Part shown: in pieces, positions 9,180-33,783 of the stretch
Numbering within the stretch: position 1 is the first letter of the stretch
Layout of the letters: each line of letters opens with the position of its first letter
Source of the DNA: Candidatus Woesearchaeota archaeon
Lineage (GTDB): Archaea > Nanobdellota > Nanobdellia > Pacearchaeales > GW2011-AR1
Direction of reading: 5' to 3'
Length of the DNA: 43,783 bases
Assembly: GCA_964518625.1 (NCBI GenBank)
Contig: CAZFHC010000004.1
Coordinates: 1-43,783 of the forward strand
Made by a program: the position numbers and the translations under genes
The notes under the pieces: generated by a model
What the model was told of the DNA's origin: nothing
What the model saw: the letters and a program-made list of their open reading frames with translations, nothing else
Database searches by the model: none

Positions 9180-9260
9180 CGCCCACGCCAGGAGTCGAAC
9201 CTGGGCGCCCAAAAGGGCCAAGAGTTCCAGTCTTGTGCAATACCGTTATGCGACGTGGGC
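9180..9260 (-). tRNA. tRNA-Ser(GGA)
   Basis: Acceptor GCCCACG/CGTGGGC, G73; anticodon arm CAAGA-CTGGAAC-TCTTG; variable arm GCCC-TTTT-GGGC; T arm CCAGG-TTCGACT-CCTGG. No CCA, no intron. Confidence 0.96.
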
Positions 9261-11219: not shown

Positions 11220-11312
11220 TGATAATTTTTGTATTTTAGAATTTATGACGAATTATTAAATTTACTAAAATGTTAGTAAATAAATTAATCCTTTGAATTA
11301 AAAGAAAAGAAA

Positions 11313-11393
11313 CGCCCATACCCCGAATCGGACGGGGATGCCCGTGAGGGCCCGGTTTTCTAGACCGGTGCAATACCATTATACGATATGGGC
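11313..11393 (-). tRNA. tRNA-Ser with AGA (A34) anticodon
   Basis: Acceptor GCCCATA/TATGGGC, G73; anticodon arm CCGGT-CTAGAAA-ACCGG; variable arm GCCC-TCAC-GGGC; T arm CCCCG-TCCGATT-CGGGG (C55). Confidence 0.9.
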
Positions 11394-11428
11394 TTATGTT
11401 TAAAGAATATAATTTAGCTTTTTAAATT

Positions 11429-12268
11429 TTACTTGAATGTTCTTTTAAGTAATTTTCTTATTTTTCCATATTTGAATGCTGAGATTATCTCTTTTGAATA
11501 TTTTGAGACTTCTTTTTCTCCGACTTCTATTATTTTTTTATATTTATGAAATTCCATTAGATTATAATTTCTCAGATCTGGATTGATAAATATGTCTGAG
11601 TTTTCTTTGGCATATTGTACTATATGATCGTTGGATTGCATTATAAGTAGAGCTTTTGAGAGCGTTTTTATTGTTTTATCTGTTTTTATTGTTCCTGTGT
11701 TTTCTCCGACTGATTCTATTGTAGTTCCTTTTAACTTGGAGCTTCCTACGTTTAATGTTATTATTTTATCTAAATTTTCTTGTTTTAGAATATCTACTGG
11801 TATGTTATTTCGGACTCCTCCATCTACTAAAATTCTATCGTTGATTTTCATTGGTCTAAATATTCCGGGGATTGCAATGCTTGCTCGGACTGCTTTTGAA
11901 AGATTCCCTTTATTAAATATTATTTCTTCTCCGGTGTTTATGTCAATTGCATTTACATAAAGTGGAATTTTTAAATCTTCAAAATTTTTATTTTCGAATA
12001 GATCGTTTAGATAGTTTTCAATTAAATTAGAATTCACTTTGTAATTTAGTGGGATACTTAGAATTTTTTTTAATGTGAATGTTTTCATTATTCCTTCAAT
12101 TTCTTGTCCTGTATGTCCTAAACAATATAGTGCACCAATAATTGAGCCCATACTACAGCCTGAAATACAATTTGGTTGTAAATTGTGTTTGTCTAAAAAC
12201 TTTATTAACGCTATATGGGCAAATCCTTTAGCTCCACCACCGCTTAATACTAATCCTACTTTGTTCAT
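11429..12268 (-). CDS. Patatin-like phospholipase
   Basis: LSGGGAKG, GCSMG nucleophile elbow, LVDGG. Confidence 0.93.
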   Translation of the reverse strand: MNKVGLVLSGGGAKGFAHIALIKFLDKHNLQPNCISGCSMGSIIGALYCLGHTGQEIEGIMKTFTLKKILSIPLNYKVNSNLIENYLNDLFENKNFEDLKIPLYVNAIDINTGEEIIFNKGNLSKAVRASIAIPGIFRPMKINDRILVDGGVRNNIPVDILKQENLDKIITLNVGSSKLKGTTIESVGENTGTIKTDKTIKTLSKALLIMQSNDHIVQYAKENSDIFINPDLRNYNLMEFHKYKKIIEVGEKEVSKYSKEIISAFKYGKIRKLLKRTFK

Positions 12269-30713: not shown

Positions 30714-31390
30714 AAAAAATTCAGATTTTTAGATCATTATTACAATTGAGTTATATTACCTTGTTGTTTACTAGTTTTTTTATTGATTTTAAATCATTTC
30801 TTTTGGTTATTTTAATTAGTACTGTTTTGGGTGGTGCGTTCTTTTGTGGTTGGTTATGTCCTTTTGGTACTTTACAAGAAATTCTTGGGAATATTAGTGA
30901 TTTATTTAATATAAAGAAAATAAAAATCTCTAATAATATACATAAATATTTGAGATATATGAGATATATTATTTTAATTCTTGCTTTGAATGGTTTGATA
31001 TTTTTATATAGATTTGATGCTAGAATTTCTTTTTTGGATATCTTAAATGGTTCTACGATTGCAATAATCGCATATTTATCTGTTGGATTCTTTGTTCTTT
31101 TATCTTTATTTGTCGATAGACCTTTTTGTAATTATTTTTGTCCTCAAGGTGCTCAATATGGATTGTTTAGTTCTTTGAGATTGTTTAGGATTAAGAGAAA
31201 TAAAGATTTGTGTATTAATTGTAAAATTTGTGATTCTAAGTGTCCTATGAATATCAAGATTTCTGAAGGTGATGATGTTAAAAGTTTACAATGTATTAAT
31301 TGTTTTGAATGTATTGCTAATTGTCCTAAGAAAGGTGCATTGAAATATGGATTTAGTGATTTTAGAAATTTGTTTAAGTTTAAAAATTAG
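30710..31390 (+). CDS. Membrane 4Fe-4S binding protein (NapH/MauN/YccM-like)
   Basis: FCGWLCPFGTLQE, RPFCNYFCP, CINCKICDSKCP, CINCFECIANCP. Confidence 0.9.
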   Translation: MKKIQIFRSLLQLSYITLLFTSFFIDFKSFLLVILISTVLGGAFFCGWLCPFGTLQEILGNISDLFNIKKIKISNNIHKYLRYMRYIILILALNGLIFLYRFDARISFLDILNGSTIAIIAYLSVGFFVLLSLFVDRPFCNYFCPQGAQYGLFSSLRLFRIKRNKDLCINCKICDSKCPMNIKISEGDDVKSLQCINCFECIANCPKKGALKYGFSDFRNLFKFKN

Positions 31391-31845
31391 TATTTTTTAC
31401 CTTTATATTTTGAAAGAAATGTTGTGAATTCTTTTTTTATTTTAGGTTGTTGTGTTTTTGTTGTTTCCAGCATTCTTTTGTTTTTACCTTTATAAAAATC
31501 ATAATATTTTGCATCATCAAAACCAATTTTCTTTACATCGTTTGATGTTGTTAGGTAATACATTGCCTCTATCCCTGACCAGAGGATTGCGCCGAGACAC
31601 ATTGGACATGGATATGTCGTTGTGTAGAGTTGACACTTTTTTAGATTGAATGTTTCTAATTTTTTGCAGGCTTTTCTTATTGCGTTCATCTCTGCGTGAT
31701 TTGTGCAGTCGTTTGTTTTTAAAACTGTATTATGTGCTTTAGAAATTATTTTACCATCTTTAATAATTACACAACCGAAAGGGCCACCTTCTTTCTCTTT
31801 TGTTCCTTTTTTCGCTTCTATTATTGCTTCTTCTATATAATTCAT
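31387..31845 (-). CDS. guaD: Zn-dependent nucleobase deaminase, GuaD (guanine deaminase)-like
   Basis: GGPFGCV, NHAEMNAIR, PCPMCLGAI, GFDD, C-terminal Tyr as in Bacillus GuaD. Confidence 0.8.
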   Translation of the reverse strand: MNYIEEAIIEAKKGTKEKEGGPFGCVIIKDGKIISKAHNTVLKTNDCTNHAEMNAIRKACKKLETFNLKKCQLYTTTYPCPMCLGAILWSGIEAMYYLTTSNDVKKIGFDDAKYYDFYKGKNKRMLETTKTQQPKIKKEFTTFLSKYKGKKY

Positions 31846-32085
31846 GTTTGTTAGAAGTTAAAATATTTATTAAATGTTAGTATTTTAATATTAAATCTAA
31901 GAAAATAATTTGTGAAAATAAATATTTTTTGGTTAATTTTAAACTTTTTAGAGATCCCATTTATAAGATATTTAGAATAAAAAATTACTCTGGTTGTAAA
32001 ATTATAAATTTTTATGAAGACATATTTCTTTTTAACAGTTTTTAATTCCCAAAAGCCTTAAAACCTTTTGTTAATTCTAATATTT

Positions 32086-33783
32086 ATGGTTGAAATTAGC
32101 AATGAGACGATTAAAGCTTATGCTTTAGAAAATGCAATTAACCATAGTGGGAAAGCAGCTCAAGGTTCTGTTTTAGCTGGTCTGTTTGCTGAAGGATTAG
32201 AAAAATCTGAAATTAAAAAATATCTTTCTATTATTCAAGAAATTGTAAATGAGGTTAATTTTTTAGATATTGAAGGACAGGAGAAACAATTTGATTCTTT
32301 GAGTAAGAAAGTTTCTAAAAGAGAGACTAGAAAGGGATTGCCTGAATTACCTAATGCTGTTAGAGGTAAAGTTGTTATGAGAATGGCTCCATTCCCGTCT
32401 GGTGCTTTACATTTAGGAAATGCTCGTCCTTTAATTTTGAATGATCAATATGCCCAAGATTATAATGGAACTTTTTTGTTAGTTATGGATGATACAATTG
32501 GTTCTGAGAAAAAATCTATTCACCCTGAAGCTTATGAGTTGATCGAAGATGCTGCTAAATGGTTAGGTTGTAAAATTAATAAGGTTTTATACAAATCTGA
32601 TAGAATTTCTCAATATTATAGGTATGCTGAAGAGTTGTTGCGGAAAGGTTATTTGTATGTTTGCTCTTGTCCTGCTGAAAATTTTAGAGAACTAAAGATT
32701 AAGAAACAAAATTGTCCATGTAGAAAGAATAGTGTAGAAAAAAATTTGGAACTTTGGAAAAGTATGTTTGATAAAACCAAAACTAATGAAGGAGGTTTAG
32801 CTGTTCGTTTAAAGACTAATATGGCTGCTCCTGATCCTGCATTTAGGGATAGGGTAATGTTTAAAATTTCTGATAGAGTTCATCCTCGTGTCAAGAATAA
32901 ATTTAGAGTTTATCCTACTATGGAATTTTCTTGGGCAATTGATAATCATATTTGGGGTATTACACATATTATTCGTGGTGTGGAATTAGAAATTGAGGGA
33001 AAGGTTGAAAATTTTATTCGGAATATTTTTGGATGGACAAATCCTATTGTAATCAATAATGGTCATCTCGGTTTAGAAAATGTTAAATTTTCTAAATCTA
33101 AAGGATTGCAAGAAGTTAAATCTGGGACTTATAGAGGTTGGGACGATCCTAGATTATGGTCTATTCAATCTTTAAGAGCTAGAGGGATTAGAGCTGAAGC
33201 TATTAGAGAATTTATTTTAGCGAATGGTGTTAAAAGGTCTAGCACAATCGTTCCTGTTGATGTTTTATATAAATTTAATAAAAAATTTATTGAACATTCT
33301 CCTAGATACTTTTTTGTTGAAAAGCCAAAGAAAATTAAAATTGGTGGAAGTCCTGTTTTAACTGCTACTTTACCCTTTCATCCTGATAACACAATTGGTT
33401 CTCGTAAGTATAAAACTAGTCAGGAATTTTTGATTAGTGGTGACGATTATGATAGTATTGAGGAAAGAAACTATCGGTTAATGCATTTATTAAATTTTAA
33501 GGCTTTTAAATTGGATAAGACATTTAGTGAACCTAGTTTTAGTTATGTTAGTGAAAAACCTGATGCTAAATTGAAAACAAAATATATTCAATGGTTGTCT
33601 GCAGATGGTGATAATGTTAAAGTTGAGGTTGTTATGCCTGATGCTGTTGTAAAGAAGGGATTGGGAGAGGCTGAGATGAAAAAATTGAATATTGGTGATG
33701 TTGTTCAGTTTGAAAGATTTGGTTTTGTTAGATTAAATAAGAAGCAAAAAGATAAATTAGAATTTTTTTATGCACATAAGTAA
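32086..33783 (+). CDS. gltX: Glutamyl-tRNA synthetase (archaeal)
   Basis: RMAPFPSGALHLGN, YPTMEF, KFSKS, VQFERFGFVR. Start moved to ATG 32086. Confidence 0.96.
   Translation: MVEISNETIKAYALENAINHSGKAAQGSVLAGLFAEGLEKSEIKKYLSIIQEIVNEVNFLDIEGQEKQFDSLSKKVSKRETRKGLPELPNAVRGKVVMRMAPFPSGALHLGNARPLILNDQYAQDYNGTFLLVMDDTIGSEKKSIHPEAYELIEDAAKWLGCKINKVLYKSDRISQYYRYAEELLRKGYLYVCSCPAENFRELKIKKQNCPCRKNSVEKNLELWKSMFDKTKTNEGGLAVRLKTNMAAPDPAFRDRVMFKISDRVHPRVKNKFRVYPTMEFSWAIDNHIWGITHIIRGVELEIEGKVENFIRNIFGWTNPIVINNGHLGLENVKFSKSKGLQEVKSGTYRGWDDPRLWSIQSLRARGIRAEAIREFILANGVKRSSTIVPVDVLYKFNKKFIEHSPRYFFVEKPKKIKIGGSPVLTATLPFHPDNTIGSRKYKTSQEFLISGDDYDSIEERNYRLMHLLNFKAFKLDKTFSEPSFSYVSEKPDAKLKTKYIQWLSADGDNVKVEVVMPDAVVKKGLGEAEMKKLNIGDVVQFERFGFVRLNKKQKDKLEFFYAHK

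Follow-up and report, generated by a model that had tools for sequence, protein, structure and literature searches.

According to reviews of tRNA decoding, Archaea lack every ANN anticodon, and no deaminase specific for A34 is known from them (PMC8007984, PMC11066159, PMC8266599). Wobble inosine (I34) goes together with loss of the G34 isoacceptor, and in bacteria most A34 tRNAs that do not belong to the Arg box escape conversion to I34 (PMC8879553). The decoding behaviour of A34 has been studied with an orthogonal tRNA of archaeal body, in which AGA was by far the most efficient of 15 A34 anticodons tested and was highly specific for UCU, with values of 19.7% for UCU and 1.4% for UCC, and with UCA and UCG below detection (PMC11066159). 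Here we describe a serine tRNA gene with an encoded A34, tRNA-Ser(AGA), in a stretch of 43,783 nucleotides (hereafter the window; contig CAZFHC010000004.1, positions 1 to 43,783) from a Candidatus Woesearchaeota archaeon (assembly GCA_964518625.1). The host is a DPANN-type archaeon, represented by a metagenome-assembled genome (MAG) of 673 kb in 39 contigs with 29% G+C and a completeness of 91%, which contains an archaeal initiator tRNA (starting with AGCGGGG) as well as intron-bearing tRNAs. No report of A34 tRNAs in DPANN archaea was found in the literature.

Structure and conservation of the tRNA-Ser(AGA) gene

The tRNA-Ser(AGA) gene is located at positions 11313-11393 on the minus strand, and is an 81-nt class II tRNA gene without encoded CCA. 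It was identified both with ARAGORN, which finds four tRNA genes in the window including Ser(gga) and Ser(aga) on the minus strand, and with the Rfam tRNA model RF00005. Read along the minus strand, the sequence is GCCCAUA-UC-GUAU-AAUGGUA-UUGC-A-CCGGU-CUAGAAA-ACCGG-GCCCUCACGGGC-AU-CCCCG-UCCGAUU-CGGGG-UAUGGGC-G. The acceptor stem has 7 bp (GCCCAUA/UAUGGGC), the D arm is of the class II type, and the anticodon stem is a perfect helix of 5 bp (CCGGU/ACCGG), closed by a 7-nt loop with U33 (C32-U33-A-G-A-A37-A38) in which direct reading of the sequence places the anticodon A34-G35-A36 at 11359-11361 (plus-strand coordinates). The variable arm (GCCC-UCAC-GGGC) forms its own 4-bp stem with a 4-nt loop, the T stem has 5 bp, and the discriminator at gene position 81 is G73; the long, stem-forming variable arm and the G73 by which archaeal class II tRNA-Ser is recognised are thus both present. 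The gene is confirmed as a genuine, well-formed tRNA-Ser with A34 and not a pseudogene, since ARAGORN, inspection of the sequence and the orthologs described below all agree with the structure proposed in a previous sequence-only reading of this DNA.

The T-loop (UCCGAUU) carries C55 where U55 is usual, so that the conserved T54-Psi55-C56 is replaced by U54-C55-C56 (TCCGATT in the gene, 11326-11332). In a local search the RF00005 model matched the gene with 43.5 bits (gathering threshold 29, E = 2.9e-08, model positions 1-71), but a filtered search of the whole window at the gathering threshold missed it, despite a score about 14 bits above that threshold; the odd T-loop is the probable reason. 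Four tRNAs of the genome have this T-loop, namely Ser(AGA), Ser(TGA), Ser(CGA) and the only His tRNA, the last three being found on contig C2 (45022-45102, 45277-45357 and 54871-54942). It recurs in the AGA genes of two other species of the genus (G036, G006), in the CGA gene of G006 and in the TGA gene of G007, while most other species of the genus have TTCGATT. The C55 T-loop is a quirk of the lineage and not a sign of decay; it implies that Psi55 is lacking, and a G18-C55 pair possibly forms instead.

The 81-nt gene was compared by BLAST with 60 relatives, and ARAGORN was then run on the fetched loci, other genomes being sampled through searches and short fetched stretches. Ser(AGA) was found in many species of the genus, and an exact IUPAC pattern covering the D and anticodon arms detected it as a single copy in 24 of the 49 species genomes, while the reversed pattern, used as a control, gave no match in the same 49. 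The same two arms occur in 48 JGI metagenome contigs, 46 of which yield a complete Ser(AGA), with 28 distinct sequences. The loop CTAGAA is invariant in the 16 aligned orthologs and in the 24 pattern matches. In contrast to this invariant loop, the stems of the acceptor, anticodon and T arms and the variable arm differ among the 16 orthologs, with compensation: 99.7% of the stem cells are paired, both sides have changed in 10 of 24 pairs, including covariation within the variable stem, and none of 500 shuffles and no slid register came near the observed value. Examples of anticodon-stem variants are CCGGT/ACCGG, CTAGT/ACTAG and CCAGT/ACTGG, and there are at least seven variants of the acceptor stem. 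The AGA genes of G003, G004 and G065 have an anticodon stem CCGGA...CCCGG, with an A31-C39 mismatch beside the loop.

An assembly error, contamination in binning or a dead pseudogene might be suspected from the fragmented state of the MAG, from the C55 T-loop, and from an Rfam score below that of the other tRNAs. However, an assembly error is ruled out by the identical A34 in 24 species genomes that were assembled separately and in 46 metagenome contigs, and the genome has no Ser(TGA), Ser(CGA) or His tRNA other than those with the C55 T-loop. Moreover, the AGA, TGA and CGA genes are nearly identical in body, with the same acceptor stem GCCCAUA and the same C55 T-loop, indicating that all of them belong to one genome. 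As far as can be judged from sequences, conservation and strong covariation exclude both an assembly error and a decaying pseudogene, and an artefact of this kind can be considered effectively refuted.

Signals for transcription are present on both sides of the gene. A TATA/BRE-like archaeal box, AAAATTTAAAAAG, is found at 11418-11430 (minus strand), 25-37 nt upstream of the mature 5' end, and is a putative promoter; a similar box occurs at about the same spacing in most other tRNA genes of the genome and in the orthologous AGA genes of relatives. Directly 3' of the discriminator is a T-rich tract, TTTCTTTTCTTTT (11300-11312, minus strand), which is likely to be an archaeal terminator, as similar T tracts follow other tRNA genes of the genome. 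Together with the conservation, these promoter signals argue for expression of Ser(AGA). The sequence-only reading had held that the case for the gene would fail if it were untranscribed while a normal Ser(TGA) existed; the second half of this applies, with Ser(TGA) on contig C2.

Serine isoacceptors, codon usage and the state of A34

The genome encodes five serine tRNAs, with anticodons GCT, CGA and TGA on contig C2, and GGA and AGA in the window. Ser(GGA), the G34 isoacceptor, is located at 9180-9260 on the minus strand (ARAGORN; 54.9 bits with Rfam), about 2 kb downstream of Ser(AGA), and the coexistence of the two that had been noticed earlier is real. The earlier suggestion that Ser(AGA) replaces Ser(UGA) proved wrong, as superwobble is not needed when both Ser(TGA) and Ser(CGA) are present. 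ARAGORN finds 31 tRNAs in the genome without introns and 36 when introns are allowed, and no ANN anticodon other than that of Ser(AGA) occurs among these 36, Leu(AAG) thus being absent; the survey proposed in the sequence-only reading, asking whether Ser TGA and CGA are missing and whether other ANN tRNAs exist, is therefore negative on both counts. All five serine anticodons are found together in four further species.

Two additional calls of Ser(tga) with intron, made by ARAGORN with the -i option, were rejected, since on reading the sequences both turned out to be class I tRNAs. One, on contig C3 (3-123, minus strand), is a tRNA-Ile(TAT) with a 44-nt intron, and the other, on contig C8 (16686-16773, minus strand), is a tRNA-Thr(CGT) with a 15-nt intron. 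Ile(UAU) is described in reviews as lost in archaea.

Codons were counted in 553 long open reading frames of the host genome. TCT is the commonest serine codon (4095 occurrences, 35%), in agreement with the heavy TCT use noted before, followed by AGT (30%), TCA (24%), and TCC and TCG (3% each). With 359 occurrences of TCC, UCU is eleven times as frequent as UCC, and if G34 alone were available more than 90% of the UCY codons would need G:U wobble.

The explanation that we favour, with moderate confidence, is that Ser(AGA) is expressed and charged with serine, that its A34 is left as adenosine, and that it serves as a Watson-Crick reader of UCU, providing extra capacity for the commonest serine codon. 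In this model a functional, vertically inherited gene would be transcribed from its own archaeal promoter. Seryl-tRNA synthetase (SerRS) does not read the anticodon, but reads the long variable arm and G73 instead, and would be expected to charge Ser(AGA) through these elements, a prediction that follows from the near-identity of its body to those of Ser(TGA) and Ser(CGA) and from the indifference of SerRS to the anticodon. The A34 probably stays unmodified, as suggested by the lack of a deaminase and by the coexistence with G34, and would pair with U3 in Watson-Crick geometry. Ser(AGA) would thereby be dedicated to reading UCU, which is the serine codon used most in these AT-rich genomes, beside Ser(GGA), which would read UCC and, by G:U wobble, UCU, and beside Ser(UGA) and Ser(CGA). 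The anticodon AGA belongs to the four-fold UCN serine box, in which any sloppy reading by A34 would be harmless.

Alternatively, A34 could be converted to inosine by an unrecognised archaeal enzyme, in which case IGA would read UCU, UCC and UCA. Such conversion is the rule for nearly all eukaryotic A34 tRNAs and for bacterial tRNA-Arg(ACG) (PMC11066159). One candidate for the enzyme is encoded in the window: a protein of 152 residues (31387-31845, minus strand), homologous to guanine deaminase (GuaD), is the product of the only gene in the genome with a cytidine deaminase (CDA) fold. PF00383 and PF14437 have one match each in the genome, both in this gene, which is related to TadA, matches MafB19/TadA-type profiles, and is present in six of the seven species of the clade of AGA-bearing species to which the window belongs. 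Nevertheless, the similarity of the protein to guanine deaminase far exceeds that to TadA. The closest solved structures are Bacillus subtilis guanine deaminase (1TIY/1WKQ; E = 1.4e-31, 47% identity over 114 residues) and plant guanosine deaminase, while TadA structures match more weakly (E = 3e-21 and worse), and the NCBIfam TadA equivalog model scores 64.9 bits against a cut-off of 150. Nor does its distribution track that of Ser(AGA): the small deaminase (about 150 residues) was not found in the AGA-bearing species G011, G013, G015, G019 and G062, and PF00383 has no match in the AGA-bearing G004 and G028, yet the small deaminase is present in the AGA-free G002 and G033. The 152-residue protein is therefore unlikely to be an A34 deaminase.

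As the sequence-only reading had expected, no TadA or ADAT2/3 deaminase could be recognised by profile and structure searches, and PF02137 (ADAT1/ADAR) has no match, although in a genome that is 91% complete these absences are not absolute. The lack of a recognisable A34 deaminase argues against inosine. The loop of Ser(AGA) also lacks the UACG context, which is required by bacterial TadA. I34 and G34 are normally exclusive (PMC8879553), yet the G34 isoacceptor, far from being absent, is encoded in the same window as Ser(AGA), and in the genus the two genes are usually adjacent. As Ser(UGA) is also present, I34 would add no decoding capacity. Taken together, conversion to inosine, be it by the GuaD-like protein or by the enzyme that deaminates m1A57, seems quite improbable; if true, I34 would occur in all three domains of life, in this case beside a G34 isoacceptor.

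A second group of PF00383 proteins in the genus, of about 340 residues, was considered as TadA-like and rejected, since these proteins read as fusions of a P-loop kinase-like N-terminus with a dCMP-deaminase-type domain, and are absent from the host genome. They are common in the genus (for example L218, 910-1950, in G013), and their GxxGxGK motif is nucleotide-kinase-like by sequence reading. In a genome as small as this, the guanine deaminase homolog itself comes as a surprise, being a purine-salvage enzyme. Its gene is divergent from the adjoining gene for glutamyl-tRNA synthetase (GluRS; 32068-33783, plus strand), and the same pairing is seen in G035 and G017, so that it occurs, with G000, in all three genomes of the window's own clade in which coordinates were compared.

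Age, losses and origin of tRNA-Ser(AGA)

A quick single-gene tree of GluRS from 48 species, split at its midpoint, was used to place the gain and losses of Ser(AGA). Within the genus GluRS identity is only 53-74%. AGA-bearing species are found on both sides of the deepest (midpoint) split, including all seven species of the window's own clade, while no member of the well-supported clades G018/G033/G024/G027, G034/G023/G032/G070/G026, G069/G010 and G072/G022 has the gene. MAG completeness varies from 69 to 100%, which blurs single absences but not those of whole clades. This distribution indicates that the gene is older than the radiation of the genus and was lost several times, as would fit a gene that is helpful, albeit not essential; on this evidence Ser(AGA) appears to be useful but dispensable.

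Around the GluRS gene, AGA-bearing species have a lower GC content than AGA-free species (33.8% vs 38.0%, p = 0.0016), and TCT makes up a larger share of their serine codons (31.6% vs 25.7%, p = 0.055). Several points weigh against Ser(AGA) as an unmodified, dedicated reader of UCU. The link with AT-richness stems largely from one clade, and a phylogenetically paired test had only five supported pairs. The loss of the gene in several well-supported clades means that any benefit is modest. Also, U-ending codons dominate all four-fold boxes, yet an A34 tRNA exists only for serine, so that demand alone fails to explain why only this amino acid is concerned; the explanation may be that anticodon shifts are free where SerRS ignores the anticodon, combined with the high efficiency and specificity of AGA. 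Finally, m1A57 of archaeal tRNA undergoes a deamination for which no enzyme is known, so that the lack of a TadA homolog is no proof that the activity is lacking.

The losses and the full redundancy with the other isoacceptors would also fit a neutral paralog, i.e. an anticodon-shifted copy of Ser(UGA) without decoding benefit, maybe poorly used by the ribosome, which would be tolerated since the anticodon plays no part in recognition by SerRS and all four UCN codons stand for serine. Anticodon shifts seem indeed to be easy: the scaffold with the CCGGT stem carries TGA in G011, G016, G022 and G029, and CGA in G013, which points to anticodon shifting among the serine paralogs. An AGA-type scaffold (CCGGT stem or AGA-type variable arm) with CGA was also seen in G012, and in the clade G011/G016/G022 (with G029, which is off the tree) the ordinary Ser(TGA) with a CTGG stem was not found. 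However, 24 species have kept A34 and the entire loop unchanged despite the low GluRS identity, and all stems are compensated over the same span, while a neutral copy would be expected to degenerate, or to drift from one anticodon to another, in genomes of 0.5-1.2 Mb. The gene has moreover been kept in all seven species of the most AT-rich clade. A neutral paralog is therefore unlikely.

We propose that Ser(AGA) originated once from a gene of the Ser(UGA) type, no later than the root of the genus. To find comparable genes elsewhere, a pattern of CTAGA(A/R) followed by a canonical T-loop was scanned over 401 genomes of the order and 401 of the phylum. Among the matches listed, which by design required a canonical T-loop, there was no intron-less Ser(AGA) outside the genus. 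Most matches outside the genus were false positives in the D arm (CTAGAGC), and the class II matches from other genera that were fetched and folded proved to be intron-bearing Ser(TGA) genes, in which CTTGAG is followed by an intron ending in CTAGA(A/G) and then by A. A broad scan pattern, GGTATYGCACNNNNNCTAGAA, was too degenerate, with about 120 chance matches in bacteria.

The introns of these Ser(TGA) genes from other genera and families (L272 in G395, L273 in G046, L286 in G094, and L287-L289) end in a near-copy of the anticodon loop, CTAGA(A/G), with A replacing U34. By reading, the intron's CTAG would pair with C32-U33-U34-G35, with one U:U mismatch, under the bulge-helix-bulge rule. The genes of G094 and G395, two members of the family from other genera, have the anticodon stem of the AGA genes and nearly the same variable arm (GCCCTTACGGGC, GCCCTTTGGGC). 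Speculatively, a deletion from position 32 to just before the intron's CTAG would yield CCGG(T/C)-CTAGAAA-(A/G)CCGG, but the AGA anticodon could just as well have come from a T34A change in a copy without intron. A sequence resembling tRNA-Ser, GCCACGATCGCATAACCTGGTATTGCACAAATTCTAGAAAATAG..., perhaps an intron-bearing gene, contains a long insert and a run of N and was seen in a Woesearchaeota MAG (CAYWWS010000053.1; L105, 2200-2380, reverse strand).

The neighbours of Ser(AGA) are ordinary chromosomal genes, encoding a DHH phosphoesterase, GNAT, UDG, a small GIY-YIG protein, patatin, ribosomal protein S10 and SNase. The gene just upstream of Ser(AGA) on the same strand is Ser(GGA) in relatives and in 23 metagenome contigs, with a gap down to 37-41 nt, and in another sub-group the upstream gene is tRNA-Met. 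The order in the window is reversed, with Ser(AGA) 2 kb upstream of Ser(GGA) and four plus-strand genes between them.

In several relatives Ser(AGA) is preceded by one or two hairpin units of about 55-75 nt (G036, G007, G004 and G019; L002, L003, L005 and L012). Each unit consists of a direct copy of the first 13-17 nt of the tRNA, an inner hairpin, the complement of the copy, and a terminal CTAAA or CTGAA. In G007 and G004 the TATA box is placed ahead of the first unit. These units may represent a leader structure, or else a mini-insertion that duplicated its target. In addition, two truncated copies of Ser(AGA), cut after the variable arm or inside the T-loop, are found upstream of the intact gene in L331 (3200-3790) and L293 (metagenome contigs Ga0075122_10003775 and Ga0208904_1004491), separated from it by units of about 100 nt ending in a TATA box. 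The 5' strand of the acceptor stem is GCCCACA in the truncated copies and GCCTGTA in the intact gene, and the arrangement looks like serial small integrations or replacements at Ser(AGA).

Such partial 5' tRNA copies and repeat units (about 55-170 nt), upstream of the gene in several relatives and metagenome contigs, might suggest a non-translational role, in which Ser(AGA) serves as an attachment or target site for these units or is spread by them. We consider this very improbable. The Ser(AGA) of the window has no such unit, the 5' and 3' acceptor strands match perfectly in every species, and close species carry near-identical genes in the same context. The Ser(AGA) arm also gave no match in a search of the IMG/VR viral contigs. 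Moreover, a hairpin unit of the same kind is located just upstream of the Ser(CGA) gene of the host genome (at 45022 on contig C2), so that these units are not specific for AGA.

Comparison with known A34 tRNAs

Judging from the sequence data, an A34 tRNA, a type known from eukaryotes and a few bacteria, is also present in an archaeal lineage, where it coexists with G34. Annotators should thus be aware that archaeal A34 tRNA genes are real, the more so as a filtered Rfam search overlooked one. That an archaeal A34 tRNA occurs naturally, and has been retained across deep divergence together with the G34, U34 and C34 isoacceptors of its box, is a counter-example to the "excluded purine" rule, by which A34 and G34 exclude each other within a codon box. 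It also provides a natural system for studying the behaviour of unmodified A34 on the archaeal, eukaryote-like ribosome, and makes the existence of wobble inosine in Archaea directly testable.

One close likeness is with the cytoplasmic tRNA-Ser(AGA) of eukaryotes, in which A34 becomes inosine (IGA) through ADAT2/ADAT3. The two share the amino acid, the encoded anticodon, the class II structure with long variable arm, and the four-fold UCN box. In contrast to the archaeon, which has Ser(GGA), usually adjacent to Ser(AGA), and in which no ADAT/TadA homolog was found, eukaryotes have no G34 isoacceptor and depend on an essential ADAT2/3. The coexistence with Ser(GGA) and the lack of an ADAT/TadA homolog make inosine unlikely in the archaeal tRNA.

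A second group of known systems comprises the unmodified A34 tRNAs of bacteria and organelles, such as tRNA-Thr(AGU) of Mycoplasma and the extra Leu(AAG) and Thr(AGU) of Leuconostocaceae and some Firmicutes (PMC11066159, PMC8007984). Like Ser(AGA), these occur in four-fold boxes of AT-rich, reduced genomes, where misreading within the box is silent (PMC11066159, PMC8007984). Unlike the bacterial A34 tRNA, which usually stands in place of G34 (PMC8007984), the archaeal Ser(AGA) adds to a complete set of G34, U34 and C34 isoacceptors.

Finally, the archaeal tRNA may be compared with the engineered AGA tRNA derived from Methanocaldococcus jannaschii (M. jannaschii) by Schmitt, Tittle and Fisk (2024; PMC11066159). 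This orthogonal tRNA is a synthetic, Tyr-accepting class I molecule working on Escherichia coli ribosomes, and not a natural serine tRNA on archaeal ribosomes, but it shares with Ser(AGA) the archaeal body and an A34-G35-A36 anticodon that in the engineered case is unmodified, and its behaviour towards UCU is the same as that proposed here for Ser(AGA).
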